Assembly (NCBI GenBank): GCA_965221955.1
Contig: CBDCTA010000002.1
Span: 64,001-128,000, forward strand
Direction: 5' to 3'
DNA from: Gammaproteobacteria bacterium
GTDB lineage: Bacteria; Pseudomonadota; Gammaproteobacteria; UBA4575
Length of the DNA stretch: 64,000 nucleotides
Shown here: positions 23,960-44,786 of the stretch, one piece after another
Position numbering within the stretch: the stretch's first letter is position 1
Layout of the letters: each line of letters opens with the position of its first letter
The notes under the pieces: generated by a model
Database searches by the model: none
Told to the model about the DNA's origin: nothing
The model's input: the letters and a program-made list of their open reading frames with translations, nothing else
Position numbers and translations under genes: made by a program

Positions 23960-23980
23960 GGTTTTCCTCCGAATTCATTC

Positions 23981-25824: not shown

Positions 25825-25849
25825 TTATTTTGTATTTAAGGAAAAATTT

Positions 25850-26758: not shown

Positions 26759-28701
26759 GAAAAACTTCCGTAAGAGAAGGCAATGAAATAATTCGACAAT
26801 GCGGTAAAGACGGAGAAGATGTCGAAGTAATCAATCCGGATGCACGCCATCACATTGGCGTAGGTTTAATTCATCCCATTACAGTAAAAGTAAAAGGTTC
26901 TGCAGGTTATTTCTGTGCAGGATTAAGTGATGCTGCGCACTTTGAAGTGGAGAGTAATGTAGGTTGGGGTGTGGGTGACAACATGTACTCAGGTTCAGTA
27001 ATAGTTGGTGGGAATGCAGGTGCTATTCCTGGAGTTGCCATACGTGGAGCCGATATAGTAATTCGTGGAAACATGGGTTCTCGTGCAGGTCAAGTTATGA
27101 AGGCCGGAACTTTATGTTGTGAAGGTAACGCAAACTTTATGGCTGGTTATATGATGTATGGAGGGCGCATCATTATATTGGGGGATTCAGGCGAAAAAGT
27201 TGGCGAGGATATGTCTGCAGGTGAAATATTCGTAGGTGGGAAAGTTGAAGATTTAGGTTCTGACGCAGAGCTTACAGATATCGATAGTGCAGAAATAGAT
27301 GAAGTAAAGGAATTTTTGGAACGTTATAAAATTCCATTCAAAGGAAGTTTTCAAAAAGTCGTTAATGCAGGAAAGAAACTACGTTACGCAACATCTGAGC
27401 AACAAATGCGTAGCATTCCGTTTTTCTCATTTTCAGGCGCATCTGATTATTGGAATCCAAAAATCCAAGAAGATTTATATATTAAGTCTCAAATTGGACG
27501 TTATCGTATTCGTGGTTATGGTGGTGCACGACCATTACCTCATTTTTCAGACATAGCATTTAAAAAAGATTTATCTATGGCGGGTGGCGATGTAGATGTT
27601 GTTTCTAAAGTAAAAATGCGCACGGAAATCGGCGGCATTAATGGCGCAGAACCTCTTAAATTAAGTATGCCAGTCATGATTGCGCCAATGAGTTATGGTG
27701 CTCTAAGTGCATCAACGAAAAGAGCAATTGGACTCGCTTCTACGTTATCCGATATTGCAGAAAATACAGGTGAAGGGGGTATGAGTGATGCGCAACGTGG
27801 AGCGGCAAAGCAGCTAATCTTTCAAATGCTTGGAGGGAGGCTGGGTTGGAATATTCATGATATGAATCGTGCTGATGGTTTAGAAATTTATATTTCACAA
27901 GGGGCTAAGCCTGGTTTAGGTGGGCAGCTAATGGCTAAAAAAGTAACGCCAGAACTCGCAAAGATAAGAGGAATTCCTGCAGGTATTGATTTACGTTCAC
28001 CTTCTCGTCATCCAGATATTTTAGGTGCTGATGATTTAGTTATTAAAGTAGAAGAATTACGTGAAGCAACAGGTTATCGTTTACCTGTTAGTATCAAGCT
28101 TGGTGCAGGACGTGTCCGTGACGATATAAAAATTGCAGTAAAGGATGGATTTGATTTTGTAGAACTAGATGGTATGCAAGGTTCCACTGGTGCGGGAAGT
28201 GCAGAAGTAATCGACTATGTAGGTATACCGACTTTACCTGCCATTATCGAAGCATTAAATGCATTAGATGAGATTGGAAGGCGTGATGATATACAAATTG
28301 TTCTCATGGGCGGCATACGCGATGGTGTAGATGCGGCTAAAGCATTATGTTTAGGTGCAGATGCTGTAGCGTTAGGGACTTCTACTATTATTGCAGGTGG
28401 ATGTATTGCATGTATGCAGTGTCATGTTGGTCAATGTGTTACTGGTATTGCAACGCAAGATCCTGAACATGAAAAACGTTATGAGCCTGAAGTTGAAGCA
28501 CAAAACATTCATCGTTTCTTAGAAAGTGTTCGTTGGCAGATTGCTACTATTGCAAATGAACTTGGCTATAACGATGTAACACAGTTAAGTCGGGACGATT
28601 TGGTGGCGTTAACGCCCGAAGTTGCAGAGATGACGGGCTTGCCATATGAGCCCCAATATGGAGATGCAGACCTTGATATTAAAGTGAGGGCAGCAGGATG
28701 A
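26740..28701 (+). CDS. Fusion of GXGXG (GltB C-terminal) domain and FMN-binding glutamate synthase domain with Fe-S motif
   Basis: G-rich beta-helix repeats, then APMSYGALS, NTGEGG, SQGAKPGLGG and CIACMQCHVGQCVTGIATQDP. Confidence 0.88.
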   Translation: MVTIDLGKTSVREGNEIIRQCGKDGEDVEVINPDARHHIGVGLIHPITVKVKGSAGYFCAGLSDAAHFEVESNVGWGVGDNMYSGSVIVGGNAGAIPGVAIRGADIVIRGNMGSRAGQVMKAGTLCCEGNANFMAGYMMYGGRIIILGDSGEKVGEDMSAGEIFVGGKVEDLGSDAELTDIDSAEIDEVKEFLERYKIPFKGSFQKVVNAGKKLRYATSEQQMRSIPFFSFSGASDYWNPKIQEDLYIKSQIGRYRIRGYGGARPLPHFSDIAFKKDLSMAGGDVDVVSKVKMRTEIGGINGAEPLKLSMPVMIAPMSYGALSASTKRAIGLASTLSDIAENTGEGGMSDAQRGAAKQLIFQMLGGRLGWNIHDMNRADGLEIYISQGAKPGLGGQLMAKKVTPELAKIRGIPAGIDLRSPSRHPDILGADDLVIKVEELREATGYRLPVSIKLGAGRVRDDIKIAVKDGFDFVELDGMQGSTGAGSAEVIDYVGIPTLPAIIEALNALDEIGRRDDIQIVLMGGIRDGVDAAKALCLGADAVALGTSTIIAGGCIACMQCHVGQCVTGIATQDPEHEKRYEPEVEAQNIHRFLESVRWQIATIANELGYNDVTQLSRDDLVALTPEVAEMTGLPYEPQYGDADLDIKVRAAG

Positions 28702-31226
28702 GCACAGTTTATGACATTAATCGAATTTTAATGCCTGAGGTGCCGCCTGATTATGAAGATCACACGGCAGATGTAAATTATGTTCCCGCTCCATGTCAGG
28801 TGGCGTGTCCAATCGGCACCGATGCACCTTCTTATATTGGTTATATTTGGGAAGGGAAGTTTGAAGAAGCATTTGAAGCCATAACGGCAACCAATCCTTT
28901 TAGTTCTATTTGTGGTCGTGTGTGCGATGCGCCTTGTGAACCTGCATGTAGGCGAACCGATAGTGATGGACCGTTGCAAATCCGTAATTTAAAACGCTTT
29001 ATCATGGATGAGCTTGGTGCTACCTATGTGCCCAAACCAGTAGAAGTTAAGCAGTCTAAAACTGTAGCCATAGTGGGTTCTGGTCCTGCTGGTCTGACTG
29101 CAGCGAATGATTTGTGTGCTGCTGGGTTTGAAGTACATGTATATGAAATGACAGATCGTTTGGGTGGGATGATGATTTGGGGTATACCTGCATTTAGATT
29201 ACCACCAGATATCATTGAGGAAGATATCAAACGTTTGCTGAAACGTTTCCCAGGTTTACATATTCATTTAAATACAGGGTTAGGTAAAGAAATTACATTA
29301 AATGAGCTTAAAGAAAAGCATGATGCCGTTTTATTAACCATTGGCTCGTGGTGGGGAAAACCAATGGGGATTCCCGGCGAAGAAGGGAATAAAAATGTTG
29401 TTGATGGAGTAAGTTTTTTACGACATGTAAATGCTGGAGAGCGCCCTTCATTACCAGAAACAGTTGTTGTAGTGGGTGGGGGAGATGTTGCTATGGATGC
29501 TTGTCGAGCAGCATTACGATTACCAGGTTGCAAAAATGTAAAAGTTATTTATCGGCGTGGTCCACATGAAATTCCTGCTAGAAAAATTGAGCTTGAAGGA
29601 GCAATTGAGGAAGGGATTGAGTTTATATATTTTACTCAACAAACTGCTGTTGAAGAACAAAACGGAAAATTAATTCTCAAATGTGTTAAGACAAAATTAG
29701 GCGAAAAAGGTGAAGATGAACGACTTCAGCCTGAAATTGAAGAAGGAAGTGAACACGAAATTGAATGTGGAATGGTGATTGCTGCGGTTGGTCAAAAAGG
29801 TGAGTCTGAAGAATTAGCAAAACATAATCTAATGGATGTCGATCGAGTGCAAACAGATTGGGAAACGATGCGCACAAAAGACGCAAAAGTTTTTGCAGCA
29901 GGAGATGGTGCATTTGGAGGTTCTACAATTGTTATGGCTATGCAACATGGGCAACGTGCTGCGTACTATGTGAAATCATTTTTATATGGCATTGAAAACC
30001 CAATCCCCTATCGGACACCTTATCGAACACGGCGAGTACCTGTTGCACAAGATATAAAATGGGAAAAATTTAATCCACACCATCCTGAATTTTTTGGAGT
30101 AGGTGATGATCCTGTAAGTTTTCCTGAAATTGAAGCAACCTACGATTGGGACACTGCGCGCAATGAAGCATCACGGTGCTATCGTTGTGATGCGGAAACG
30201 GGTTCGCCAGACTATTCCGTCGCACATCGTGAAGATATTTTTTCTATGGCACGTACAAATCCAGCAGATCATATGAAGTTGAAATCTATGTTGCGAAAAC
30301 GATTACGTACTCGCACGAATCCTTTTCCTGAAAATCGTGCACCTAATTTAGATGACATTGTATTTTTACCGGCTAACTTATCACGTCTTGTAATTGATCC
30401 GTATCGAGAAGCGTGTAATGTCACTATGAATCTTGCCAATAAGCTAGATATGCAACATCCATTTCTAGTAACGGGTTTTGACAATGAAGCGCAAGAAATA
30501 TTTAAAGCAATGAGTCAAGGATGTGCTATATCGCATACACCTTATTTAGGTAATAAGAACCCTGGTAATGAAACGAGTTGGTTACAACTCAGTTCTAATT
30601 TGTCGGATCAAAACAAAGATACAGCAGGGTATATCTATTATCTAGACAAAGATGAAGAACCTGTACCATTAACACCAAATACAGATCATCAAATAGTTGG
30701 TTTAGCAATTTCTACGCGCATTAACCTTGAACAAGTCATTGCTAGTTCAATTGATAATAAGCATGATATTTTGGTTTTAGATGGAAGCGGTGATCTTTAT
30801 CGTAATTGGTCTGAATTAGAATCTGCACCAGATTTTAGTATATTGCGAGATACTATCCGTATTTTGCGCAAAATGAAAAAAGAAGAGATGATTGACATTG
30901 TTTATTTTGGGGGCGTGCGTTCTGGCACAGATGCAGCAAAATTAATTGGGTTAGGTGTAAATGCAGTGGTGATGGGAGTTTGTGCTGGACTTGCCATGGG
31001 TGGTGAAGTTATTAATAATAATCTTGTGTTTAGCTCAAATTATTCTGACACTGATCGCATTCAAGGATTAGCTAATATTGTTAAAGCAAATTTAGGCGAA
31101 GCATCCATGATGGCGCGTTGTACTGGAAAAACTAATTTATATAATGTAGAGCCGGAAGATTTGAGTGCTGTTACCAAGGAAACATCTAAGGTCACAGGGA
31201 TTCCGCTTTCTGGAGGATGTGTATAA
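28698..31226 (+). CDS. GltD-like FAD/Fe-S oxidoreductase fused to a degenerate glutamate-synthase barrel
   Basis: PCQVACP, CGRVCDAPCEPAC, GSGPAG, GGGDVAMD, YRRG, RCYRC; C-terminal LDDIVFLPA, GGVRSGTDAAK..LG, MARCTGK..EPEDL. Confidence 0.85.
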   Translation: MSTVYDINRILMPEVPPDYEDHTADVNYVPAPCQVACPIGTDAPSYIGYIWEGKFEEAFEAITATNPFSSICGRVCDAPCEPACRRTDSDGPLQIRNLKRFIMDELGATYVPKPVEVKQSKTVAIVGSGPAGLTAANDLCAAGFEVHVYEMTDRLGGMMIWGIPAFRLPPDIIEEDIKRLLKRFPGLHIHLNTGLGKEITLNELKEKHDAVLLTIGSWWGKPMGIPGEEGNKNVVDGVSFLRHVNAGERPSLPETVVVVGGGDVAMDACRAALRLPGCKNVKVIYRRGPHEIPARKIELEGAIEEGIEFIYFTQQTAVEEQNGKLILKCVKTKLGEKGEDERLQPEIEEGSEHEIECGMVIAAVGQKGESEELAKHNLMDVDRVQTDWETMRTKDAKVFAAGDGAFGGSTIVMAMQHGQRAAYYVKSFLYGIENPIPYRTPYRTRRVPVAQDIKWEKFNPHHPEFFGVGDDPVSFPEIEATYDWDTARNEASRCYRCDAETGSPDYSVAHREDIFSMARTNPADHMKLKSMLRKRLRTRTNPFPENRAPNLDDIVFLPANLSRLVIDPYREACNVTMNLANKLDMQHPFLVTGFDNEAQEIFKAMSQGCAISHTPYLGNKNPGNETSWLQLSSNLSDQNKDTAGYIYYLDKDEEPVPLTPNTDHQIVGLAISTRINLEQVIASSIDNKHDILVLDGSGDLYRNWSELESAPDFSILRDTIRILRKMKKEEMIDIVYFGGVRSGTDAAKLIGLGVNAVVMGVCAGLAMGGEVINNNLVFSSNYSDTDRIQGLANIVKANLGEASMMARCTGKTNLYNVEPEDLSAVTKETSKVTGIPLSGGCV

Positions 31227-31264
31227 AAACTTTATAGATTTAAATATTCTCCTACAGATATACT

Positions 31265-32635
31265 TCACTGAATGGTAGTTAAATTCGGCGACTTAAACGC
31301 ACCATCCATGCTAAATTTTTGCATCGAATCACTATTTTTTAATAAACTATTTATAGGTAAACGACTGATATCATTATCAGCTAGTTTTTTATCTAAACAT
31401 GTTACATTTCCTAAAGCATTTATCTGATGTTGCTTTAAGTCATACACGCCTTCGATAGTTAATAGTGATTGTTTATATTGATTTGATGAAGATCTGCTAA
31501 TGCAATCTAAGTTTTCTTTTTCTAGATAAGCAAACCACCTAGGCAATAATGTTGAAATTGATGTTCCAGAAATTAAAGCATTTATTTTAATATCTAGATT
31601 TTCATTATTATTTAGAAAAAGGGCATTTCCTTCAGCATGCGCTTCTTCTAAGTTTATTATCGCTTTATCTAATTCTATATGTGAAAAATTATTTAATGCA
31701 TTCCCAACTATCTGGAGGGAAAATATTTCTAAATTTTTTCCAAAATAGTCAATTAATTCTAACGAACCTTTTTCGCTAACCAAATCAAATTCTGCTTTAT
31801 TGATGATTAGAAGCTTATCTATCTCAATTTCTACTTTTCCAGTTAATTGTACTTCTAGGGGTGTAAGGTAAGTGAAATGTGGTGCAATTTCTGTTAATAG
31901 GGCAGGCCTTATTTTATCTAAATTAACTATTAAATTGAGTTTTTCATTACGTGTTTTATAGATACATTTCCCAGAAATATGTAAATTTTCATTCCTTGCT
32001 AAAACATTAAAATCATATACACACCCAACACCCTCTTTATTTGGTGTTAATACAATATTAGCATCAGGCACACGTAATAATGAACCTGAAACATCATCAC
32101 TTAGCGTTAAATCAGAATTGTTAATTCTAATTTCAGTGAGTGATTCATGATTTGGAAAATCATTTATTGCGCTTGTAGCAATATACATAAGTATTGTTTC
32201 AAGTATTTTCCCAGATGCCCCGTCATGTGTATTACCTATGTCAAATTTTAATGCGCCACCTGTAGTGCGAATAAAGCTGATTTTTGGGTTTTGAAATTCT
32301 ATACCTTGAATCCATATATGATCATTAAAGAATGAGTTAATTTTTACTTCAGCTAAAATATTCGGAGCTGTAGCAAGAATGTTATCCCCATAATCTAGTG
32401 CATTAATGGAGCTAAAATGAAATTCTAAAACCCCTTTTATTGGACGTAAACGAGATTTAACAGTATCAAAATCTATGTAATAAGTATGAAATCGATTTTC
32501 CAACCCATTTTTCATTAAATGTGATATGAAGGGCAGAGGGACAGGTTTTATAATGCTTACGATTAAGTATGTGATGATTGATAGCATCATCACGGAGAGG
32601 AGTGTGATAACAGTCCTTTTAGCCGTAACTAACAT
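31265..32635 (-). CDS. Membrane-anchored AsmA/YhdP-like beta-rich protein (short)
   Basis: N-terminal TM + PLPF, amphipathic beta-strand pattern; family call is weak. Confidence 0.5.
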   Translation of the reverse strand: MLVTAKRTVITLLSVMMLSIITYLIVSIIKPVPLPFISHLMKNGLENRFHTYYIDFDTVKSRLRPIKGVLEFHFSSINALDYGDNILATAPNILAEVKINSFFNDHIWIQGIEFQNPKISFIRTTGGALKFDIGNTHDGASGKILETILMYIATSAINDFPNHESLTEIRINNSDLTLSDDVSGSLLRVPDANIVLTPNKEGVGCVYDFNVLARNENLHISGKCIYKTRNEKLNLIVNLDKIRPALLTEIAPHFTYLTPLEVQLTGKVEIEIDKLLIINKAEFDLVSEKGSLELIDYFGKNLEIFSLQIVGNALNNFSHIELDKAIINLEEAHAEGNALFLNNNENLDIKINALISGTSISTLLPRWFAYLEKENLDCISRSSSNQYKQSLLTIEGVYDLKQHQINALGNVTCLDKKLADNDISRLPINSLLKNSDSMQKFSMDGAFKSPNLTTIQ

Positions 32636-32724
32636 GTCATGTTATTTGTTATTCTTGATCATCACTCCATAAGGATCAAGGTTATTTAGTTTAATCATAT
32701 TCATAAAATACTGTTTTATTTATT

Positions 32725-33030
32725 TCATGGGCTTGTTCGATCGCTTTTCTTATATAGATAAACACAGTCTGTATCTTCATTTCCATCAAGAATAGCTTTG
32801 CCATCTGTTTTAAGGGTTTCTAAAAAATATGTCTGAACGGTTTTGCAGGCCGCAAACGTTAATGCTTGTTTGTAAAGCCAAATATCATCTTCTTCATCAA
32901 CACTATGTGTTTTAAACATAGTATCTTTAGGGTCCGAGGCTATGCCTACATACCAATCATGAAAGTCACCGCCAAACTCTTTCATATAGGCGAGAATTTC
33001 ATATTTAATTTGTTGTACGCTATAAATCAT
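32725..33030 (-). CDS. Hypothetical protein
   Basis: WYVGIA.DP....F..H pattern; ATG 33030 avoids overlap with the Sel1 gene. Confidence 0.65.
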   Translation of the reverse strand: MIYSVQQIKYEILAYMKEFGGDFHDWYVGIASDPKDTMFKTHSVDEEDDIWLYKQALTFAACKTVQTYFLETLKTDGKAILDGNEDTDCVYLYKKSDRTSP

Positions 33031-33058
33031 AAGTTTAGAAAAAACTATTAGCAATCGC

Positions 33059-33739
33059 TTAAGATGGCGAAGGGTACATAGCGACTTGCATATCGTCTGT
33101 CCCTGTTTTATTACGCCATTGTTCAAATAAAGTTACACCCATTGCTTTTTCTTCTGCTGACATGCTTTTTACAACAGACTCTAATGCATTAAGTGCAGTG
33201 CCAATTCCATGTTGTGAAGCTAATGTCAACCACAAATATGCTTTAACTCGGTCTTTTTCCACGCCATCGCCATGTGCGTACATATACCCAAGTCGTGACT
33301 GTGAAGGGTAATGACCTTGCTTTGCAGCTTTTTCATATAACTCTGCTGCATATTCTGTATTTTCATCTACACCTTCACCTTTTGCATACAATACAGCTAA
33401 ATTAAATAAGCCATTAACGTCATTGTTATCCGCTGCTGCTGTTAACCATTGAATAGCTTTATCAATGTTCTTTTCCGTACCTTGCCCCATAAAGTACATT
33501 GCGCCTACATTTGCTTGTGCCATAGCATGCCCTTGTTCTGCGGCTTTTTTATACCAAGCCAACGCATTTGCATCGTCAACTTCTACACCATCACCATTAG
33601 CATAAAGAGAACCTAACCATGATTGTGCTTCAGGATTTCCTTCATCAGCTTGAATTTTCCAAATTTCTCGTGCTTTTTGATAATCACCTTGGCTATAGGC
33701 TTGGCGTGCCATGTCCATAGTATTCTCCTTATTATTCAT
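33059..33739 (-). CDS. Sel1-like repeat protein
   Basis: Four AQ..LG..Y..G.GV..D...A..W..AA repeats; no signal peptide. Confidence 0.9.
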   Translation of the reverse strand: MNNKENTMDMARQAYSQGDYQKAREIWKIQADEGNPEAQSWLGSLYANGDGVEVDDANALAWYKKAAEQGHAMAQANVGAMYFMGQGTEKNIDKAIQWLTAAADNNDVNGLFNLAVLYAKGEGVDENTEYAAELYEKAAKQGHYPSQSRLGYMYAHGDGVEKDRVKAYLWLTLASQHGIGTALNALESVVKSMSAEEKAMGVTLFEQWRNKTGTDDMQVAMYPSPS

Positions 33740-33752
33740 ACTGATTTAAATG

Positions 33753-34940
33753 CTAACGTCTAATATTGTTACTGTATAAAGGTGCATTCCAATAATATTC
33801 ATATTCAGTTTCTATTTGTTTGAATATGTATTGATGAAATGTATAAGCTGCCATACTAGTTTCAACAGGAACCATATCCTGTGTAAGCTCTGGTGCTCCT
33901 GGTGCCGTTAGTTCATCGGTTTGTTTTTGCATAGAATGCGCGTTATCACAAATCATGCGTATATAGTCTTGCCATTCAGAAGGTAACGGTGAATGTTCAA
34001 GCTCTGAGCTTTGTTTATTTTTTCTAAACATCAAAGTTCGCAAAGTAGATTCACCCATGCTAGTGGGTTGTAGGATCACGCTTACAACAAAAGTGGGGTG
34101 TGTAATTAAGATTAAATTAGGAAACAGCCAACTTAGCTCAATGTTTTCAATATTTTCTTTTGTAATTGCACCAATTTCATGGGTCGATAACTTTGGTGCA
34201 GTATAGCTAGTAACATCAATTACGCTTTCAGTGTTATTAGTACAATGTTTACGAATTCCTTGTGAATCAAAAAATGCACGACCTGCAAATTTCCAATTTG
34301 ATGCACAATCAAACCATTCGCTATTTTCTAATACAAATTCATCCGATAAACATGAGAGTATTGCATTAGGTAATTGCTCTAAATCTTCAGTTAGATCGTT
34401 GCATTGTTGGTCTAAATTTATAAAAACAAATGAACCTAAGGTTTTTACTTTGACAGGTAATAGTCGTTCGGGAATTAACCCTAAATATTGGTGCATGGTT
34501 GGTGTGTTTTCACCAATTTCTTTCACACGTATGACTTGGCGGTCTCGACTGTAACCACAAGATGTGAAGGAACATTTAGTTTTCTTTCCTGTTTGGCATT
34601 GTGCAGGTACTGCACGACACCCTCCATGTTGTGCTTTATTGAAACGCCCAATTAAGTTACCGTCATTTTCTCTTTGTACATGTATACCATGCTGCCCCAC
34701 TGTATAAGGCAGCATGTCTCCAGGGTTTGGTATTTCTTTTGTTGAACCAATTGCAATCCAGTTGCGTGTCCACAGTTTTTCATCTTCTAAATCATTGAAA
34801 ATTTTAGACTGATATGAAAAAAGCGGCAGTACTGTAGCTTGCCCAAAAGGTTGATTTGTAGTTTTATATAAATCTACGTCAGTTAGATCTATATCATTTT
34901 CTACATAGCCCATGTCTGGATGAAATTCCATATGCACCAT
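33753..34940 (-). CDS. Rieske oxygenase alpha-subunit-like protein with non-canonical ligands
   Basis: E..KLW.RNW......IP.PGD, L..V.V....FVFINLD, NWK and LFPNL scaffold; CxH/CxxH motif altered. Confidence 0.75.
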   Translation of the reverse strand: MVHMEFHPDMGYVENDIDLTDVDLYKTTNQPFGQATVLPLFSYQSKIFNDLEDEKLWTRNWIAIGSTKEIPNPGDMLPYTVGQHGIHVQRENDGNLIGRFNKAQHGGCRAVPAQCQTGKKTKCSFTSCGYSRDRQVIRVKEIGENTPTMHQYLGLIPERLLPVKVKTLGSFVFINLDQQCNDLTEDLEQLPNAILSCLSDEFVLENSEWFDCASNWKFAGRAFFDSQGIRKHCTNNTESVIDVTSYTAPKLSTHEIGAITKENIENIELSWLFPNLILITHPTFVVSVILQPTSMGESTLRTLMFRKNKQSSELEHSPLPSEWQDYIRMICDNAHSMQKQTDELTAPGAPELTQDMVPVETSMAAYTFHQYIFKQIETEYEYYWNAPLYSNNIRR

Positions 34941-34968
34941 CCAACTAAATTTGAATTTTAAGATCTGG

Positions 34969-34999
34969 GTATCATTGACACTATATGTGTCAATGATAC
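34969..34999. other. Perfect 13-bp hairpin downstream of the DMFase-like gene
   Basis: GTATCATTGACAC-TATAT-GTGTCAATGATAC, with no clear U-tract. Confidence 0.65.
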
Positions 35000-35069
35000 T
35001 TACAGATTTATACTCTTAATACATTTTGGTATATCAAAAAACTACCAAATGTTGATTTACATTAGATCC

Positions 35070-37469
35070 TTATTTGCTCTTCTTATTCATCGCTGGATCA
35101 TGGTCAGCACGACCACGATGGACAATGGCATCCTTAGGAGGTTCTGGTAATGGACCATCTTTAGAGAATCGGTCAAGAACATTACCTACTAAAGTAGAAA
35201 TGTTATTTTTACCGTTATTCCAAGGTAATGATCCACAGAAAGCGATAGAACTAAATGCAAAACATCCGCCACCATTAGGTGTTTCGTGGAATGCGATATC
35301 AGAACGCACACGTGGATGTTGAGTTCCGTCGATACCTTGTTGGCTGAAGCCGTAGTCTTCCATAACCAGTAGATAGGCTTCGGTATGACGACCGGCTGAG
35401 GTAGCACCCACTAATGTATGAGGTGGAGAACCTAACATGGTGTCTACGATATCCAACTCGGTACCTGCAGCACCGCCGCCCACCAAACCAAAGTTACCAA
35501 TTTTCTCATCGTAATCGATACCTTCAAATGCCCAGGAGATTCGAGGATCGTTACTTTCATAAGTACGAGAGTAGTAAGATGAAATATCAAATCCTTCTGA
35601 AGACATACCTGTTCCCGCAACAGAGTGTAGATATCTACCACGGTAACGCCACATACCACCGAGTTCACCGGTGCCTTGGTGATAGTATTCACCAGGGTCT
35701 GCACGCCAAGTACGAATACCTGACTCACAACGACGCATTTCGGTGATAACCCCTCGGCCTAAATCATCATAGGCTGGATGGAATGAGTGTATCCAATACC
35801 ATGCGTCTGCACCCATATACATGAGACGCCCACCCTGTTGCGTGTAGTTATGTAACGCATCTAATTGTGGACCACTGTTATGCTCAGGGTGAGAGCCAGT
35901 AATGATGACGTTATAGTTTTCAAGTCTTGCGAGACCATCATAGTTAACATCTTCATCAGTAATACAATCATATTCATAGCCCATTTCTTCTAACCAGTAA
36001 ATCAAATGAAGATCTGCTGGATATTGCCATGGGGCTTGCATTAAAAAGTGGTCGTACTTCGGACGAATACTTAAAATGGGCCGTAAGCGTGATGATAAGC
36101 ATAGTCCGCTACCATCAGTATGAGTGTCGTAAATGGAGCCACCATACTCACGATGTTCACTTAAGAACATGTTTTGGTCTTGCATGATGGGTACACGGTA
36201 GACTAATAGCTCAGCTCCGCCTGCATTATTTGCTAAATGCTCATTCGCATAAGCCATGTAACTTATAGTCGGTACCATGAAAGCAATTTTGGACTGCTCT
36301 TTACCAACCTCAGGTACTACCCAAAATGTTACGTACTCTTCATCTCCTTCATCAGTGGTAAGCTTTGCTGCATAAAATTTACTGCTCGTGCCTTCTGGTA
36401 CATTCCATTCGAAATCAACATCCCAACGTGCGTCATCTACATCATCATCATGAAAATGTATTGCTCCATATTCTTTTGGTGCATGTTTCCAATCAAAGTT
36501 GTGTCCAGTGAAATTATGCCCTGTCATAGCGCGAGTAGGGCAGTTAATGATATCTAAGTGATATAGGTAAGGCCCATGATCTGTGCCCTTTCTTGTACTA
36601 ATGCAATCAGAGAAATCCCAAGATCCCACAATGGCTTCAGATAAAGGACCCGTAGGACCACAATGTCGTCGTTCCGTTAAGCCCGGTTGTGCTCCTAACT
36701 TCATGGTCTCAATTTCTTCACGACTTAATGCTCTTCGACATAAGCGTGGGCTATCAATTTTACCGTTGTAATGTCCTGCCATCACCATGCCTGCGGGGCG
36801 TGAAGCTTGAGCTTGAGGATCAGAGTCAGCGCCGCCAGCATAAGCGGCAACTGCAAAAGGAACACCTGAAGTGTGTTCAATTTTTCCACTTACTTTTTGT
36901 GTTACAGGAGGTATTTCTGGATCTAAGGCATAAACAATTTGTGGTTCATGATAAAGAGTTGCTTGACCTGTAGAGGCATCAAATGTAGCCGCAACAAAAT
37001 GCCAAGCATGATCACGAATTGGAGCATCTGTTGTAATACTTGTTCCATTAATTCGTAATTCTAAACATCCGTTTTCATTTATAAAGAGTCCATAGCCTTT
37101 CCCGTTGCACCATTTTGTCATTAAGCCTTGTGCACCATGTCGCCAGTACTTTGGGTGTGTTTTTGGAGTGGTTGGCCAGATCCAACATTGCATGGTAAAT
37201 GATTCAACTTGTAGATGAACATTGTCCTCTACATATCCATATGAACCACTATAAATGGTTTGTGGTCGACCATTATGTTCACCATTACAATTTGCATCTA
37301 CATTTTCTTCAATAAATCCTGGTCCACGTGGGTTAGTATCTCCATGGATCATTTTTACAATTTGACAATTATATTTTTTAGGACCATCGCAATTCACATG
37401 GAATTTGATGGTTTTACCTGGGTTGACACCAAATCGATCAGCGTAACCCGTTAATCTCATTGCACACAT
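35070..37469 (-). CDS. dmfA2: N,N-dimethylformamidase large subunit-like protein
   Basis: GY.DR..V..G..I.F.V, IHGD.NP.GPG, LamG-like insert, PT.SY.AYANE, S.YD.H.DG.G, GSHPE. Confidence 0.88.
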   Translation of the reverse strand: MCAMRLTGYADRFGVNPGKTIKFHVNCDGPKKYNCQIVKMIHGDTNPRGPGFIEENVDANCNGEHNGRPQTIYSGSYGYVEDNVHLQVESFTMQCWIWPTTPKTHPKYWRHGAQGLMTKWCNGKGYGLFINENGCLELRINGTSITTDAPIRDHAWHFVAATFDASTGQATLYHEPQIVYALDPEIPPVTQKVSGKIEHTSGVPFAVAAYAGGADSDPQAQASRPAGMVMAGHYNGKIDSPRLCRRALSREEIETMKLGAQPGLTERRHCGPTGPLSEAIVGSWDFSDCISTRKGTDHGPYLYHLDIINCPTRAMTGHNFTGHNFDWKHAPKEYGAIHFHDDDVDDARWDVDFEWNVPEGTSSKFYAAKLTTDEGDEEYVTFWVVPEVGKEQSKIAFMVPTISYMAYANEHLANNAGGAELLVYRVPIMQDQNMFLSEHREYGGSIYDTHTDGSGLCLSSRLRPILSIRPKYDHFLMQAPWQYPADLHLIYWLEEMGYEYDCITDEDVNYDGLARLENYNVIITGSHPEHNSGPQLDALHNYTQQGGRLMYMGADAWYWIHSFHPAYDDLGRGVITEMRRCESGIRTWRADPGEYYHQGTGELGGMWRYRGRYLHSVAGTGMSSEGFDISSYYSRTYESNDPRISWAFEGIDYDEKIGNFGLVGGGAAGTELDIVDTMLGSPPHTLVGATSAGRHTEAYLLVMEDYGFSQQGIDGTQHPRVRSDIAFHETPNGGGCFAFSSIAFCGSLPWNNGKNNISTLVGNVLDRFSKDGPLPEPPKDAIVHRGRADHDPAMNKKSK

Positions 37470-37535
37470 ATCTTTTCTCCTCTCTTATTCTTATCGTATA
37501 GAATTATTTTTTAATTAATAATGTGTAAGCCTTAA

Positions 37536-37985
37536 TTAGGTTACGGTCCAATTATCATTGCGTCGTTTCCAACCTTCATTGAAGTGCTCGGGATATCCAT
37601 CTTCTTCATCCAATTCATCCAAGCGCATTAGGAAAATATCGTGTTGTGGATCTTGTTCATTGTCATATACTTTATCGTTGACAAATTCTGGAGGCACACC
37701 TCGAATTCCTGAAAGTCGTCCGATACGCCATTCTTTTTCAACCTTTGTGCAAATCACTACTAATTTTCCACCAAAATTACCTGGCATAGCTGCGCGCATG
37801 CGTATTAGCACTTTATTTAGCAAAGGATCATCTGTGAATCCGTCAGTAACAACAGTAGTATCTCCTGGAGTCTCGCATTTCATGATGGTGCAACCAGCCA
37901 CACCTTTCATAGATTCGATACACTCCTTGTGGGTTTTGATGAGTCTTTCGCGTTCAGGCGTCCCTTTTTTTGGTATTGATATCAT
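37536..37985 (-). CDS. dmfA1: N,N-dimethylformamidase small subunit-like protein
   Basis: Directly upstream of the large subunit; L..VL..MR, WRIG.L...RG.PP and H.IFL.R pattern. Confidence 0.7.
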   Translation of the reverse strand: MISIPKKGTPERERLIKTHKECIESMKGVAGCTIMKCETPGDTTVVTDGFTDDPLLNKVLIRMRAAMPGNFGGKLVVICTKVEKEWRIGRLSGIRGVPPEFVNDKVYDNEQDPQHDIFLMRLDELDEEDGYPEHFNEGWKRRNDNWTVT

Positions 37986-38112
37986 GGTTTATCCTCCGCA
38001 ATTGTTAGAAAAAACAGTAGTAGTAGACAATCACAACCGAACAAAATGGATTTTGATGGTGTGGATAAATTTCTGATCTAGACGATCTTTATATTATTTT
38101 ATTAGGCAGTAC

Positions 38113-38215
38113 TAGCCAAAAGTCTACTGTCTTATGGCCATAAGTGAATCATATATACACATTTTGGTCAATACATTGAGCTTAATTTATCGACTGAAAT
38201 GAATAGAGCTCTAGT
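38113..38215 (-). promoter_or_regulatory. dmf promoter block with palindrome CTTATGGCCATAAG
   Basis: Perfect palindrome at 38131-38144; flanking sequence homologous to 43700-43784. Confidence 0.7.
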
Positions 38216-38498
38216 CAATCAAAGAGACAAATATCAATTTTAATATTTTCAGCAAGCATGAAATATGAGGATAATTAATTTAGATTAATCAAAAGGATAA
38301 GTGATTAATATAGAATAAAAATGAAATAAATATGCAATAAATTTATTTAGTTCAGGCGCAAAGAAGGCGCATGTACAATAATTGTAGAGAGAGTGATCAC
38401 GTAAGGTTACAAAAGTAGAATTTCTTATGAAAAAATTCTTATATAAAGGCTTATGTATTAGAAACGATTAATATAATCACAAATACCAATTTAGCCAG

Positions 38499-39194
38499 CT
38501 AGATTGTTAGATGTTGCTCTACTAATTCTTCGGTTAATTCACTTATTGGCCCTTGTGCAACAGATCGTCCGATATCCATGATGACAAACATATCTGCCAG
38601 TTGTTTTGCTATCTTTATGTGTTGCTCGGTCAGAACTAATGTCATTCCCATCTCTTTATTCAAGTGGTGTAGAGTGTTTTGAATTTCTTCTACTATATTT
38701 GGCTGAATACCTTCTGTAGGTTCGTCAAGTAATAATACTTTAGGGTCAGTAGCTAGAGCACGCGCAACCGCTAGTTGTTGTTGTTGACCACCTGATAGTA
38801 ATCCGGCGCGCTTATCTAGATTATCAGCAAGATAGGGAAATAATTTTAAACATGAATCGGGTAGTTTATTCTCATTATCATTTCTTGCAAATGTACCAAG
38901 TACAATATTTTCGCGTACACTAAATTTACCTAGTATCCTTCGACCTTGAGGGACATAGCCTAGCCCTGCATGTGATCGTAGATGTGTTGCTTTTTTAGAA
39001 AAATCTTCTCCATTAATTTTCAGTGTTCCCTCCATGCTAGTAGTAAGACCCATTATAGTTTGAAGTAAGGTTGTTTTACCTACTCCATTTCTACCCAATA
39101 CACATAGACATTGACCTTCTTGTAAAGAAATACTTACGTCTTGGATAATGGGTGTTTTTCCATAATAGGAAGTAACATTTTCAAGTTCTAACAT
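38499..39194 (-). CDS. ABC ATPase, UrtE/LivF-like
   Basis: GRNGVGKT, LSGGQQQQL, LDEPTEGIQP. Confidence 0.92.
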   Translation of the reverse strand: MLELENVTSYYGKTPIIQDVSISLQEGQCLCVLGRNGVGKTTLLQTIMGLTTSMEGTLKINGEDFSKKATHLRSHAGLGYVPQGRRILGKFSVRENIVLGTFARNDNENKLPDSCLKLFPYLADNLDKRAGLLSGGQQQQLAVARALATDPKVLLLDEPTEGIQPNIVEEIQNTLHHLNKEMGMTLVLTEQHIKIAKQLADMFVIMDIGRSVAQGPISELTEELVEQHLTI

Positions 39195-39195
39195 G

Positions 39196-39939
39196 TTAGT
39201 TAATTCCTTCCGTGCCTAGATACACTTCTTTGACTTTTGGATGCTGCTCAATTTCTGATAAGGTTCCTTCAGCAAGCATTTTTCCTTGGTGCATTACTGA
39301 AATTACATCTGCAATGCTTTTTACAAAGGACATATCGTGCTCAACTACAACTAGAGTGTGATCACCTTTTAATTCTTTAAAAATCTTAGATGTTTTTTCT
39401 GTTTCTTGTTCTGTCATTCCTGCCGTTGGCTCATCCATTAACAACAATCTTGGTTTTTGCATCAACACCATGCCTATTTCTAGCCATTGTGTTTCACCAT
39501 GTGAGAGCAAGCCTGCAATATCATCTAAGCGATTTCCTAAGCCAGCTAATTCAATAATTTCATTAAAATGTTTTTTTCCTTTTTTATTAGAAAAAGGATT
39601 CATGTTTTGAAAAGGGCCACGCTTTTCTGTGAGCGCAACTTGAAAATTTTCACGTACAGTGAGTTCTTTAAAAACAGCTGGAATTTGAAACTTACGCCCA
39701 ACTCCTAAGCCTACAATTTGTCTTTCAAGTAGTTTAGTGATGTTTTTACCATCAAAATGTACAGTCCCTGAGGTAAGCTTTTGTCGACCAGTTATTAAAT
39801 CTAAAGAAGTAGTTTTACCTGCACCATTAGGACCAATTAAACAACGTAACTCACCTTCATTTACACTGAAATCAAATCCATTAACGACTGAATAATCATT
39901 ATAAGTTTTTGTAACTTCTTTTAATTCTAGTATTGCCAT
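39196..39939 (-). CDS. ABC ATPase, UrtD/LivG-like
   Basis: GPNGAGKT, RKFQ.P, LSHGE.QWLEIGM, VVEHDM. Confidence 0.92.
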   Translation of the reverse strand: MAILELKEVTKTYNDYSVVNGFDFSVNEGELRCLIGPNGAGKTTSLDLITGRQKLTSGTVHFDGKNITKLLERQIVGLGVGRKFQIPAVFKELTVRENFQVALTEKRGPFQNMNPFSNKKGKKHFNEIIELAGLGNRLDDIAGLLSHGETQWLEIGMVLMQKPRLLLMDEPTAGMTEQETEKTSKIFKELKGDHTLVVVEHDMSFVKSIADVISVMHQGKMLAEGTLSEIEQHPKVKEVYLGTEGIN

Positions 39940-41018
39940 TATGCTGCCTGCTTGATTCCGTTGTTGTTACTAGAAAACTTACCTAAAATTGTTTCAAATA
40001 GGCCAGTAAGACCTTTTGGAAGAAATAAAACAACAGCAATGAAAACTGCGCCAAGAATTATAAGCCATAGTTGTTGAAATTCATCGCCAGCATAGCTTTG
40101 GCCTAAATTAATTAAGAACGCTCCTAAAATTGCGCCAAGTAATGAAGTACGTCCACCTACTGCAGCCCAGATTACCATTGAAATACTTAGTGTAATTTCC
40201 ATTGATGTCGGCGAAACATATTGGACTATCATCACATACAAAATACCAGCGCAAGCAGCAATAAAGCCAGAAAGAGTGAATAATACAGTTTGATAATATG
40301 CAACGTTGTAACCTAAAAATCGTGCACGCTCAGGATCATCTCGCATCGCTTGCACAATGAGGCCAAATTTTGTATGTAGCAAAAATTTTGTGCCTAAAGT
40401 TAGAAAAGCTAAGAAACCTAAACAAATCCAATAAGCGGTACTGCTATATGGATCTATTTGTGTACCAAATATTTCAAAAGGAGAGGGAGGTGAAATGCCA
40501 TTAAAACCAGCCGTAAAAGGTTGCATATCGTATACAACTGCATACCAGGCAGCTAACATGGCTAAAGTCATAATGGCGACAAACACGCCAACGACTCTTG
40601 CTTGAAACATCATATATCCAAAAAATAAAAAGAATAAAGTAGGGATGCCGAGTGCTAAAGTTAATCCCATTGGGGTTGACCAGAACGGTTCCCAAACTAA
40701 AGGTAATGTTTCTAGCTCATTCGTCAACATAAAGGTTGGGATTGGGTCGGACTCAGGATCTTGAAACTGCATTTGCATAGTGGCACCCATTCCGTATGCA
40801 CCCATGCCAAAAGCAATGCCTTGCCCCAAACTTAATATTCCGCCATACCCCCAGACTAGTGACACTGAAACGGCAGTGATGGCAAAGACCAGGTAACGTG
40901 CATATTGGTTTAGCGAAAAAGGGTTATCAAATATAAAGGGTAAAAGTCCTAACAATACAAATATTGCTATATAAACTGCCCATTGTGCTTTGCGGTTGTG
41001 ATAAAGGTTCCCATTCAT
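39939..41018 (-). CDS. ABC permease, UrtC-like
   Basis: WGYGGILSLGQG..FG.GAY, A.RD...R..FLGY, VIW.AVGGR. Confidence 0.9.
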   Translation of the reverse strand: MNGNLYHNRKAQWAVYIAIFVLLGLLPFIFDNPFSLNQYARYLVFAITAVSVSLVWGYGGILSLGQGIAFGMGAYGMGATMQMQFQDPESDPIPTFMLTNELETLPLVWEPFWSTPMGLTLALGIPTLFFLFFGYMMFQARVVGVFVAIMTLAMLAAWYAVVYDMQPFTAGFNGISPPSPFEIFGTQIDPYSSTAYWICLGFLAFLTLGTKFLLHTKFGLIVQAMRDDPERARFLGYNVAYYQTVLFTLSGFIAACAGILYVMIVQYVSPTSMEITLSISMVIWAAVGGRTSLLGAILGAFLINLGQSYAGDEFQQLWLIILGAVFIAVVLFLPKGLTGLFETILGKFSSNNNGIKQAA

Positions 41019-41060
41019 GTTGCTAATTCTCCATCTGCTATTGTTATTTTCATTTAATGC

Positions 41061-41963
41061 TTAGCGTCTTGTAGCTCCTTCTGAAATGAGTCCTTGAGGA
41101 CGAAACCTGAGAAACACAACAATTAAAGTGAATAATATGAAACGCGCAAATGTTTCATTGGTAAAGTATGAAAAGATTGAGCTTAGCTCGCCAAGAATGC
41201 CTGAGCTGAACATGCTGCCAACAAGTCCAATTCCACCCACCACAACAACAAGAAAGGCTTCGACAATATATCCCATTCCCATATCAGGAAATAATGTTTT
41301 TAGTGCACCAAACAATGCTCCGGCTACACCTGCTAATCCTGCTCCATAAGCAAAGGTTAAACTGTAAATTTTATTCGCATCAATGCCAAATGATGCTGCC
41401 ATTTCTTTGTCTTGCATTACGGCGCGTACTCTGATCCCTAAAGTAGTTTTATACATTAGGTACCATGTCACGGCTCCGATCGCTATTGCAAATATAATAA
41501 TGAAAAGCCGTACACCCGATAAGTGAATGAAATTAGCTTCTATTTGGAAATCAAGCCATTTAGGGACACCAACATATTTAGGTTCGCCGCCAAAAATTAA
41601 ACGAATCCCTTGTATTAAAATTAGAGACAACCCCCATGTTGCTAAAAGTGTATCTAGCGGGCGCTGATACAGTGTCCGGATTATCCCTCGTTCTATTGCC
41701 CATCCAATTAATGCCATCACAATAAACGCCAGAGGTAAGCAAAGAAGAAATGGAACACCTAAAAAATGTTGAAAAACATAGGTTGTATATGCGCCTAGCA
41801 TTATGAATTCGCCATGCGCCATATTGATGACTCCCATGGCACCATAAATGATGGTCAAGCCTAGAGCTGCAATGAAAAATATACTGGCGAGGCTAACACC
41901 TATAAATAATGAATTAAGAAATGGATAGAGAGAAAAGGGAGTCCAAAAATCATGTACGCTCAT
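41061..41963 (-). CDS. ABC permease, UrtB-like
   Basis: GVINMAHGEF.MLGAY, RPLDTLLATWG.SL, RPQGL. Confidence 0.9.
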   Translation of the reverse strand: MSVHDFWTPFSLYPFLNSLFIGVSLASIFFIAALGLTIIYGAMGVINMAHGEFIMLGAYTTYVFQHFLGVPFLLCLPLAFIVMALIGWAIERGIIRTLYQRPLDTLLATWGLSLILIQGIRLIFGGEPKYVGVPKWLDFQIEANFIHLSGVRLFIIIFAIAIGAVTWYLMYKTTLGIRVRAVMQDKEMAASFGIDANKIYSLTFAYGAGLAGVAGALFGALKTLFPDMGMGYIVEAFLVVVVGGIGLVGSMFSSGILGELSSIFSYFTNETFARFILFTLIVVFLRFRPQGLISEGATRR

Positions 41964-42087
41964 TACCTATATTCCTCCTGAAAATAACTTGAGTACTGAA
42001 AGAGCCAAGGCTATAGCTCTTATTTAGTTATCCAGTTTTATGTTTTTATTTGAACGAGCACGTAATAATTATTATTTTGTGCTCTAA

Positions 42088-42180
42088 TATTTTTTCCATC
42101 ACAGCTCAAATAAAGAAGCGATGGAAAAAATAACTAAGCCCACATGATACGGCGACTTATTCACAGTCGCCGTATATGTG
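42088..42180. other. Two hairpins between the binding-protein and permease genes
   Basis: ATACGGCGACT/AGTCGCCGTAT within 42141-42180; TATTTTTTCCATC/GATGGAAAAAATA at 42088-42132. Confidence 0.65.
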
Positions 42181-42197
42181 ATCAAAAAAACACCTTC

Positions 42198-43529
42198 TTA
42201 AAGTACGTTCTTCTTAATTTTTCCATCAGGAGTATGTAGGCCATCTGCTTTACATACACCGCGTTCTGGGTAGATAGACATCGGATCGGGTGGTACATGC
42301 TCATCCGCAGCTTTCACAATTGTAAACTGACCGTCAGCACCACATTGACCAATTTTTGGTTTCAACCAAATGTTGAAGTTATCTGGATCAATCCAAACTT
42401 TACCTTCTGGTGAAACATCATCTTCAACTGTAATGTTGCCTGAAACATCGCGAATCATACGTGGGGTAATTTCTTCAATGTTACCAGTCTCTTTTAATGC
42501 CTTCTCTAAGCCATATTTAAATACATAGAACGACAGATAAGTCTCTTCCATATTATAGTGGGTTACACCGCCACCGCCGTATTTACTAGATAAATAACCG
42601 TCTACAAACTTGTGGTTAGTCGGGTTATCTAATGTTTGGAAATAAGGGGCTGATAAGAAGTGACCTGCACCTGCTTCAGCGCCCATTGCACGGATTTCGA
42701 TTTCACCCGTAGTTAATGCAGCAATTGGCAATTTGTCTGACTTAAAACCTTCTTGTAAGAACTGTTTATGCATAGCGATATCCGAATCACCCACAACAGT
42801 TGAGAAGATAAAGTCTGGCTTTTGTTGGCGAACCTTATTGAAAATTGGAGTGAATTCAGAGCCACCTAGAGGCACGTAGTCTTCACCAACAATTTCGCCG
42901 CCTGCACGTTCTAACCAAACTTTAGCGTTTTTATTTGATTCTTTTGGCCAAATATAGTTTGAGCCAATCAAGTAACACTTCGGTCCAAATTCTTTTGCCA
43001 TGAATGGAATTAAGTCAAACGAGTGTTGATTCGCTAATGGGCCAGTATTAATGATATTTTGCGTGCACTCACGACCTTCATAACAGGTTGGGTAGTAGAA
43101 AAGATGGTCACGTGCCATCACAATTGGCGCTACCGCTCTACGGCTAGCAGAGGTATATCCACCAAATGTTGCAATTACACGATCTTTTAAGATTAGTTGA
43201 CTAATTTTTTCTGAATACACTTTAATATCAGACTTGGCATCAATCACAACGGGCTCAAGCATTTTGCCTGCAACACCACCCGCAGCATTAATTTCGTCAA
43301 TTGCATACAATCCTACTTGCGTAGAATCATTTTCAATTACGGCTAAGTTGCCTGTTTGTGACCAGAGCAATCCAACTTTTATTGTTTTATCACCTTTTTT
43401 AATCCATGGAGCTGCAGCAGTTGCTTTAGGAATGTATAGGGATGGAAATCCCACAGCAGCTGCAGTTGCGCCAACTGCGGATCCTTTTAAGATCGCACGT
43501 CGCTTCTGACTGATAGGCTTATCTTTCAT
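42198..43529 (-). CDS. Tat-exported amide/urea-type ABC substrate-binding protein (UrtA/AmiC fold)
   Basis: RRAILK Tat signal; GGYTSASRRAV, YPTCYEG, GSNYIWPKESN. Confidence 0.9.
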   Translation of the reverse strand: MKDKPISQKRRAILKGSAVGATAAAVGFPSLYIPKATAAAPWIKKGDKTIKVGLLWSQTGNLAVIENDSTQVGLYAIDEINAAGGVAGKMLEPVVIDAKSDIKVYSEKISQLILKDRVIATFGGYTSASRRAVAPIVMARDHLFYYPTCYEGRECTQNIINTGPLANQHSFDLIPFMAKEFGPKCYLIGSNYIWPKESNKNAKVWLERAGGEIVGEDYVPLGGSEFTPIFNKVRQQKPDFIFSTVVGDSDIAMHKQFLQEGFKSDKLPIAALTTGEIEIRAMGAEAGAGHFLSAPYFQTLDNPTNHKFVDGYLSSKYGGGGVTHYNMEETYLSFYVFKYGLEKALKETGNIEEITPRMIRDVSGNITVEDDVSPEGKVWIDPDNFNIWLKPKIGQCGADGQFTIVKAADEHVPPDPMSIYPERGVCKADGLHTPDGKIKKNVL

Positions 43530-44726: not shown

Positions 44727-44786
44727 AATCAATAAATCTAAGCTAGATGTAGTCTGATTTTATATAATTTTTGATTTTACCTATAT

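Follow-up and report, generated by a model that had tools for sequence, protein, structure and literature searches.

What is the role of a protein that is built like the alpha subunit of a Rieske oxygenase, has lost both iron sites of such an enzyme, and is encoded directly behind an iron-dependent amidase? The question is raised by a gene at 33753..34940 on the minus strand of a 64,000-nucleotide (nt) stretch of DNA from a gammaproteobacterium of the UBA4575 lineage (GCA_965221955.1, contig CBDCTA010000002.1, positions 64,001 to 128,000), here called the window. An earlier reading of the letters alone (the sequence-only reading) had taken the product for a repurposed Rieske-oxygenase-fold protein with a rewired metal site, located next to a dimethylformamidase (DMFase)-like enzyme. 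The results described below lead us to regard it, with moderate confidence, as a non-oxygenase, metal-binding accessory protein of the amidase that would serve maturation or redox upkeep. The parts of the gene on which the argument rests are as follows.

33753..34940, minus strand: Rieske-oxygenase-alpha-like gene with the rewired Cys4 site; open reading frame (ORF) of 395 amino acids (aa), likely start at 34931, giving 392 aa
34407..34769, minus strand: Rieske-like domain, about residues 58-178 as judged by secondary structure; the most conserved part of the protein
34542..34640, minus strand: metal-site segment N101-D133, with A103 (formerly Cys1), H105 (His1), C108, P112, C115, C123 (Cys2), T126 (formerly His2), and C128
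34290..34298, minus strand: N215-W216-K217, an oxygenase motif that is retained without iron ligands after it; invariant in an alignment of 116 relatives

The ORF is intact and, as the sequence-only reading had stated, full length, its closest homologues measuring 387-396 aa. Translation probably starts at the second ATG (34931, MEFHPD...), because the homologues begin at this position and a conserved ribosome-binding stretch, GGATGGTG-type, precedes this codon in related loci; residue numbers nevertheless follow the 395-aa ORF throughout. Read directly from the DNA, the metal-site stretch is NKAQHGGCRAVPAQCQTGKKTKCSFTSCGYSRD (residues 101-133, nt 34542-34640). A word-indexed search with the protein returned 549 relatives, and a full hidden Markov model search 3952 relatives at E ≤ 1e-3, with 110 representatives (50% identity clusters) at E ≤ 1e-30.

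Predicted fold and family assignment

The protein stays below the curated thresholds of the families that it resembles. Pfam gave 17.0 bits for Rieske (cut-off 20.3) and 20.6 bits for Ring_hydroxyl_A (cut-off 24.9), the gene is absent from the five PF00355 matches of its own genome, and NCBIfam returned weak and partial oxygenase-subunit matches, the best being GbcA (7.1e-14, 51 bits against a cut-off of 670). An AlphaFold model based on a diverse alignment of 117 sequences reached a predicted local distance difference test score (pLDDT) of 92.2 and a predicted template modeling score of 0.92, with residues 103-131 at a pLDDT of 82-91. VIA-align superposed this model on stachydrine demethylase 4qur (Z 26.6, root-mean-square deviation 3.7 Å over 314 residues), about 40 further Rieske oxygenase alpha-subunit entries scored Z 23-26, and Foldseek matched it to oxygenase folds with an E-value of 5.9e-17. 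Alignment with hhalign to 25 canonical relatives gave a probability of 100 and an E-value of 1.6e-51 over 357 columns, and an Atlas search with residues 60-178 yielded Rieske-domain clusters only (scores 0.88-0.89). Structure and profile alignment agree on the two-domain alpha-subunit fold, with the Rieske domain inserted in a START-like catalytic domain, so that the Rieske-oxygenase fold proposed by the sequence-only reading was recovered in full. Judged by model and profiles, the Rieske-like protein is homologous to oxygenase alpha subunits along its entire length, and its descent is from the Rieske oxygenase alpha-subunit superfamily, closest to the alpha3 N-demethylating group.

Replacement of both iron sites

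The register of the metal site was fixed by alignment to solved Rieske oxygenases and by profile-profile alignment with the 25 canonical relatives. In this register, the canonical ligands Cys1, His1, Cys2, and His2 correspond to Ala103, His105, Cys123, and Thr126, the His1-to-Cys2 spacing is 18, the same as in canonical proteins, and three cysteines are added: Cys108 (His1+3), Cys115 (mid-loop), and Cys128 (Cys2+5). The Rieske [2Fe-2S] pattern C-x-H-x(15-17)-C-x-x-H is broken throughout the family, with A103 present in 115 of the 116 aligned relatives and T126 likewise in 115; canonical relatives retain C100, H102, C121, and H124 (in their own alignment numbering). At the second iron site, the canonical H236, H241, and D364 lie in the hhalign alignment opposite G228, C233 (a variable column), and I330, therefore the 2-His-1-carboxylate site is absent. 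Between residues 222 and 271, the 116-relative alignment contains no conserved His, Asp, or Glu.

The alignments thus uphold what had been read from the letters, namely the change of the first Cys to Ala and of the second His to Thr, the three extra cysteines, and the missing mononuclear-iron segment after NWK. Because both ligand sets are missing family-wide, the protein is not a Rieske oxygenase, in line with its earlier description as a non-catalytic or repurposed subunit. Since it fails both ligand tests that define such an enzyme and stays under the curated cut-offs, it should not be filed as an oxygenase; "ring-hydroxylating oxygenase subunit alpha" and "biphenyl 2,3-dioxygenase", the names given to relatives in databases, are misleading.

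The four cysteines follow the spacing C-x6-C-x7-C-x4-C, without the two CxxC or CPxC knuckles of a rubredoxin or zinc ribbon. Cys108 and Cys128 flank the old ligands His105 (outer) and Cys123 (inner) on the same two loops. In bc1-type Rieske proteins, we take position His1+3 to be the disulfide cysteine beside the cluster, and position Cys2+5 to be the serine that hydrogen-bonds a bridging sulfide, so that both C108 and C128 would adjoin the old cluster position. The original ligand-variant work on the archaeal Rieske-type ferredoxin (ARF) is reportedly that of Iwasaki et al. 2005 and Kounosu et al. 2004. According to passages of a review on ARF, Rieske loops resemble those of rubredoxin and zinc ribbons, and ligand swaps in ARF give either a mononuclear Fe(Cys)4/Zn site or a 3Cys-1His [2Fe-2S] cluster (PMC2946596). 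Because of this resemblance, and because swapped ligands still give metal sites, a metal centre is the natural reading, and the four cysteines may bind one at the old Rieske position. To judge from these passages, the Rieske-like family looks like a natural counterpart of engineered ARF, in which Rieske loops carry changed ligands. The engineered site is, however, a CxxC...CxxC arrangement at the original positions, whereas the cysteines of the Rieske-like protein occupy His1+3, mid-loop, Cys2, and Cys2+5, within a 395-aa protein.

Conservation and origin of the four cysteines

In the 116-relative alignment, H105, C115, C123, and C128 are present in every sequence and C108 in 115 (the exception, P0007, has Gly). 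Of 82 ORFs, taken from the 80 genomic loci described below plus the window's own ORF, 81 carry H-x2-C-x6-C-x7-C-x4-C, and the single miss is a 149-aa fragment. When the family was followed down to 21% identity (117 sequences), the only invariant residues left were H87, G106, C108, P112, C115, C123, and C128. Since these seven columns are invariant family-wide and His105 is replaced in remote branches, the conserved core is, on these alignments, Cys4 plus His87, with His105 an accessory feature of the main branch. The "Cys4/His" site of the sequence-only reading hence needs to be amended: its four cysteines are strictly conserved, but its histidine, His105, is not part of the core and gives way to Q, Y, F, or E in remote branches, the invariant histidine being H87. 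That reading had also named close homologues with canonical ligands and unconserved extra cysteines as the observation that would speak against it; instead, the four cysteines proved to be conserved among homologues, without exception in the 117 sequences.

Among the 150 best representatives, the rewired motif extends to about rank 103 and the canonical CxH...CxxH appears from rank 105. Sequences between the two sets have mostly kept the four cysteines, with His105 replaced by Q, Y, F, or E. A tree was made from 113 of 151 candidates (38 were dropped for being shorter than 290 or longer than 480 aa), and it speaks to the split between branches and not to the placement of the root. All 28 canonical sequences fall on one side of a single branch with maximal support (SH-aLRT 100), and 85 others on the opposite side, of which 69 have the histidine and four cysteines, 15 the four cysteines only, and 1 another arrangement. 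On the Cys4 side, His105 was lost several times. The rewired family, as the tree indicates, arose once from canonical oxygenases. The alignments further indicate that the Rieske-like protein is under strong purifying selection, with the rewired cysteines as its most conserved residues. Most of the conservation falls in the N-terminal domain. The C-terminal domain is more variable and is often shortened or divergent, total lengths being 326 aa in the homologue on pAMI5, a chromid of Paracoccus aminophilus, and 270-350 aa in remote branches. The distribution of the family is patchy: of the 400 genomes of the same class that were scored, the window's own was the only one to match, and genomes of the same genus and the same family gave no match to the Rieske-like family.

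Linkage to the amidase gene

The genes and the intergenic element upstream of the Rieske-like gene are the following.

35070..37469, minus strand: DMFase-like large subunit (Fe amidohydrolase), 799 aa
37536..37985, minus strand: DmfA1-like small subunit, 149 aa
34970..35000, minus strand: intercistronic stem-loop with a perfect 13-bp stem, within the 129-nt gap between the amidase and Rieske-like genes

The sequence-only reading had placed an Fe-dependent DMFase-like enzyme just upstream, and the large subunit (Pfam DMFA2_C, 5.5e-86) is indeed a clear homologue of the large subunit of Paracoccus DmfA1A2 (PDB 6lvb, E 4.6e-152) with the same iron ligands. Passages of the work on the Paracoccus enzyme give Y399, Y440, and E521 as Fe ligands and H519 as essential (PMC7686228). 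These align with Y407, Y447, E529, and H527 of the amidase, all invariant in the amidase alignment. The small subunit is 61% identical to its paralogue on pAMI5, which is itself described, in the part of the source that deals with it, as a DmfA1 relative at 34% (PMC4543880); its direct PDB match to 6lvb_B is weak (E 0.73).

Two sets of loci were collected independently. The first, obtained with the Rieske-like protein as query, comprised 94 relatives, of which 80 were kept, from Gamma- and Alphaproteobacteria and one betaproteobacterium, including Hyphomicrobium, Methylobacterium, Methylopila, Hansschlegelia, Ancylobacter, Xanthobacter, Methyloligella, Bosea, and Afipia. In 79 of these 80 loci, the Rieske-like gene is immediately preceded by the amidase gene, and the remaining one has only 318 nt of upstream sequence. 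The second set, obtained from metagenomes with the amidase as query, consisted of the best 80 of 308 relatives, and the Rieske-like gene follows the amidase gene directly in all 74 loci with at least 600 nt of room, the other six being without room. The small-subunit gene precedes the large-subunit gene in the examined loci of both sets. The link to dmfA2 suspected earlier is thus found in 79/80 and 74/74 loci, plus pAMI5, which is the strict co-occurrence and adjacency with the amidase expected of an accessory factor. Across loci, the amidase is 72-96% identical, against 32-75% for the Rieske-like protein. One contig, L003, is labelled as an uncultured Mycobacterium bin and carries the gammaproteobacterial cluster (amidase 89% and Rieske-like protein 64% identical to those of the window); it is probably mis-binned.

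On pAMI5, the paralogue cluster has the same order as the window, i.e. small subunit, large subunit, Rieske-like gene (annotated "biphenyl 2,3-dioxygenase", 326 aa), and a 101-aa homologue, with an AmiS/UreI channel instead of an ATP-binding cassette (ABC) importer, and without Sel1 gene. In the relevant passages of the pAMI5 study, no link of this dmfA1-dmfA2 paralogue to the use of dimethylformamide (DMF) was found (PMC4543880). Accessory genes of this kind do not figure in the description of dmfR-dmfA1-dmfA2, the operon for DMF degradation. The minimal conserved module is, on the loci compared, the small subunit, the large subunit, the Rieske-like protein, and the 101-aa protein, with a small-amide/urea-type importer supplying it. 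Plasmid searches for the remote Cys4 branches gave no match with P0205, and with P0195 returned pAMI5 again and nothing else.

A hairpin between the amidase and the Rieske-like gene

The stem-loop in the 129-nt gap has a fold z-score of -4.25, and comparable hairpins recur across loci. Uninterrupted stems of 9 bp or more, counted up to 120 nt from a stop codon, follow the amidase gene in 104 of 153 loci (in 88 of them the stem has 11 bp or more), compared to 12 of 153 in shuffles of the same windows. Such stems follow the small-subunit gene in 26/144 cases, urtE in 22/126, and the Rieske-like gene in 14/149. The hairpin sequences are wholly different between lineages and the structure is kept, with compensatory changes in 8 of the 13 pairs among 11 gammaproteobacterial copies. 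A consensus scan of positions 31000-38600 gave 16 promoter-like sites against 29.5 expected and 4 terminator-like sites against 4.3, nothing above shuffles, and no minus-strand site in the amidase/Rieske-like gap. The hairpin may act in stability or attenuation, with the enzyme genes on one side and the three downstream genes on the other, a boundary that fits helpers produced in smaller amounts than the enzyme.

The surrounding gene cluster

Aside from the amidase and the Rieske-like gene, the cluster and its immediate surroundings contain the following genes.

33059..33739, minus strand: cytoplasmic Sel1-repeat protein, the second accessory gene (Pfam Sel1, 2.1e-41)
32725..33030, minus strand: conserved 101-aa protein without assigned family, the third accessory gene; start set by homologues (MIYSVQQIK)
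38499..43529, minus strand: Urt/Fmd-type ABC importer heading the cluster (UrtA-like binding protein, two permeases, and two ATPases), identified by Pfam and synteny
28698-31226, plus strand: GltD-like NAD(P)H iron-sulfur (Fe-S) flavoprotein gene, 2.5 kb from the Rieske-like gene

The Sel1 protein has four repeats and no signal peptide was seen in it. The 80 loci contain 77 Sel1-type ORFs, and 76 ORFs for the 101-aa protein, whose pAMI5 homologue is 36% identical. In the Atlas, the latter falls in unnamed clusters (0.97-0.99), with GIY-YIG and T5orf172 as weak leads only. The order of these two genes flips between lineages, and at the 101-aa gene the mechanical ORF list shows a TTG-start ORF of 133 aa that overlaps the Sel1 gene, whereas homologues start later. 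Behind the accessory genes, at 31265-32635 (minus strand), lies a gene for a protein of 456 aa that matches DUF748 weakly and is hydrophobic in a stretch near its N-terminus; it recurs there in gammaproteobacterial and some alphaproteobacterial loci at 19-60% identity. The importer's binding protein scored 319.8 bits against the UrtA model, below the cut-off of 492.75.

As the sequence-only reading had noted, no reductase gene is adjacent: the operon contains none, and the GltD-like flavoprotein lies 2.5 kb off. The latter gene stays next to the cluster only in gammaproteobacterial loci (plus L036 for the whole set to which it belongs). This set, a second glutamate-synthase-like one at 25775-31226 (plus strand), consists of an amidotransferase, a fused protein with GXGXG and flavin mononucleotide-binding parts (653 aa), and the 842-aa GltD-like Fe-S flavoprotein, whose final ~350-400 residues match no family, Pfam and NCBIfam matches stopping by about residue 500. 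It adjoins the cluster in gammaproteobacterial loci such as L002, L004, and L082, and in L036.

At 44034-48216, genes for a hybrid histidine kinase and for a LuxR-type response regulator adjoin that of a second UrtA-like binding protein. This trio also accompanies the cluster in several Alphaproteobacteria and on pAMI5, and is probably the operon's substrate sensor. Further away, at 48360-58083 (minus strand), lies a set resembling the N-methylglutamate pathway, with sarcosine-oxidase-like subunits, a glutamine-synthetase-like GmaS candidate, and MgsABC-like genes. Genes of this methylamine pathway are found near the cluster in the window and in L080, L133, and L146, and their proximity hints that the amidase may release a methylated amine. 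On the other side, at 19425-25103 (minus strand), urease genes form a cluster that includes a fused gene for the gamma and beta subunits (232 aa) and one for a NicO-type nickel transporter; in about ten genomic loci, the amidase cluster is directly followed by urease genes.

Comparison with known systems

The nearest known relatives are stachydrine demethylase (Stc2), carnitine monooxygenase (CntA), and glycine betaine monooxygenase (GbcA), alpha3-type quaternary-amine Rieske monooxygenases that share the two-domain fold over nearly the full length (Z 25-26.6). Compared to these enzymes, the Rieske-like protein has kept the NWK, FPN, and Q-x-G motifs, and the positions and spacing of His1 and Cys2. 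It differs in the replacement of Cys1, of His2, and of the catalytic His/His/Asp, in its three new invariant cysteines, and in its context, since the module has no reductase partner and is tied to an amidase and not to an amine-catabolic operon. A functional precedent may be TEF5/PSB33 (LIL8) of green-lineage thylakoids, which, in the passages devoted to it, is described as having a Rieske-like domain without the cluster or mononuclear-iron residues and as acting as an assembly factor (PMC12164590). As far as that description goes, the likeness is one of function only, i.e. as assembly factor for another metalloprotein complex; TEF5/PSB33 has no replacement cysteines, is membrane-anchored and eukaryotic, and is not known to share homology beyond the fold class.

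Possible roles of the Rieske-like protein

The role that we favour with moderate confidence, that of a metal-binding accessory protein for maturation or redox upkeep of the amidase, could work as follows. A former Rieske oxygenase alpha subunit has lost its oxygenase sites and kept its two-domain fold. The tip of its Rieske-like domain would carry a metal centre, either a [2Fe-2S] or [4Fe-4S] cluster with cysteines as the only ligands or one Fe or Zn ion, and through this conserved tip the protein would act on the amidase as a low-abundance factor, the fast-evolving C-terminal domain being mainly a scaffold. It might deliver iron to, or insert it into, the buried 2-Tyr-1-Glu site of the amidase, or alternatively keep this iron site in the correct redox state. 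More tentatively, and as a proposal that we consider less likely than not, Cys4 plus His87 might form a new kind of redox-active Fe-S/Fe centre that, together with the 101-aa and Sel1 proteins, would constitute the first dedicated maturation/redox-maintenance system for a 2-Tyr-1-carboxylate Fe(III) hydrolase.

Several observations weigh against such a role. The cysteine spacing of 6/7/4 fits no textbook Fe-S or zinc-knuckle motif, and in a first AlphaFold model, based on 116 close relatives, residues 103-131 were the part that was not modelled with confidence (pLDDT < 50). No FNR-type reductase or ferredoxin gene was found in the window operon, nor among the conserved neighbours in 160 loci. 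A family-wide cysteine cluster able to receive electrons was not found in the amidase either, where C27 and C310 are invariant in the amidase alignment but replaced by Ala in the pAMI5 paralogue. A T-rich tail, with 4 or more T among the following 8 nt, is present in only 31 of the 104 hairpins; most of them are therefore not classical terminators, and attenuation of the downstream genes is what we infer. Finally, passages on the Paracoccus DMFase report a two-subunit enzyme that is active in the absence of any partner of this kind (PMC7686228, PMC4543880), thus a helper is not a general requirement of this enzyme family. A complex prediction with the full amidase large subunit and Rieske-like residues 36-182 scored 0.00 and was not used as evidence either way.

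The rival explanation that fares best, although we think it unlikely, is that the protein is a stoichiometric third subunit of the amidase, in which the four cysteines hold a structural zinc and which shapes or stabilises the complex. The obligate gene order agrees with this, as does the highly conserved surface of the N-terminal domain beside a highly conserved enzyme, and the small subunit of DMFase is described, in the passages concerned, as also stabilising (PMC7686228). However, the conserved stem-loop sets the Rieske-like gene apart from the two enzyme genes, the protein evolves faster than the enzyme (32-75% versus 72-96% identity), and many members have a shorter or divergent C-terminal domain, as on pAMI5 and in remote branches.

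Less probable again is a separate enzyme that acts on a substrate or product of the amidase, such as a carbamate or a methylated amine, by means of the Cys4 centre or the START-like pocket. Its nearest solved folds, Stc2 and CntA, are N-demethylating Rieske monooxygenases, with GbcA added by NCBIfam, methylamine-pathway genes occur in the window and beside L080, L133, and L146, and the main branch has invariant polar residues, namely E211 (nearly), Q291, R301, and E360. Yet the oxygen-activating iron site is gone, the NWK, FPN, and Q338 features are generic to oxygenases and present in canonical relatives too, and the C-terminal domain, the least conserved part, has no residue that is invariant family-wide.

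Slightly further down we rank a sensor or regulator, whose Cys4 centre would respond to redox state, iron, or a ligand and thereby adjust the amidase or the operon. Cysteine-rich Fe-S sites often sense iron or oxidants, the Cys4 site lies on exposed loops, and the START-like domain could hold a small ligand. Against this, Pfam and NCBIfam showed no DNA-binding or signalling domain in the protein, fused forms were not found at E ≤ 1e-20 among proteins of 693-2000 aa (in itself weak evidence), and the cluster already has its set of binding protein, histidine kinase, and LuxR-type regulator. Decay into a functionless oxygenase gene, which the loss of both canonical ligand sets might suggest, is ruled out by the conservation data: all relatives have an intact reading frame, the motif does not vary among 116-117 sequences and is found in 81/82 locus ORFs, 110 clusters (50% identity) are found at E ≤ 1e-30, and synteny extends across Alpha-, Beta-, and Gammaproteobacteria.

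Significance

The open-access papers and preprints that were searched contained no description of the Rieske-like protein and none linking a dimethylformamidase to a Rieske-like or ring-hydroxylating partner, and preprint 10.1101/2021.03.18.435917 does not mention Rieske, urea, operon, or dioxygenase. What appears to be new is the combination of a known fold with a new conserved set of cysteines, as putative metal ligands, and a new partnership. Two iron sites define a Rieske oxygenase; in this family both have been replaced or lost, and yet the new cysteines are its most strictly conserved positions. It would be a natural case of a ligand rewiring that has so far only been engineered in the laboratory. 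The four-Cys signature and the strict gene order also provide a marker that separates a "natural" amidase system from the solvent-degrading DMFase. The cluster of amidase and Rieske-like genes is found in many methylotrophs and marine lineages, and DmfA-type proteins of Alpha- and Gammaproteobacteria are described, in passages of a study on a Pacific metaproteome, as abundant ammonia-releasing hydrolases (PMC9477243). If a dedicated maturation or redox system is indeed what these genes encode, it would correspond, for iron, to the urease accessory proteins, and its client would be an amidase with a wide distribution among marine and soil Proteobacteria.

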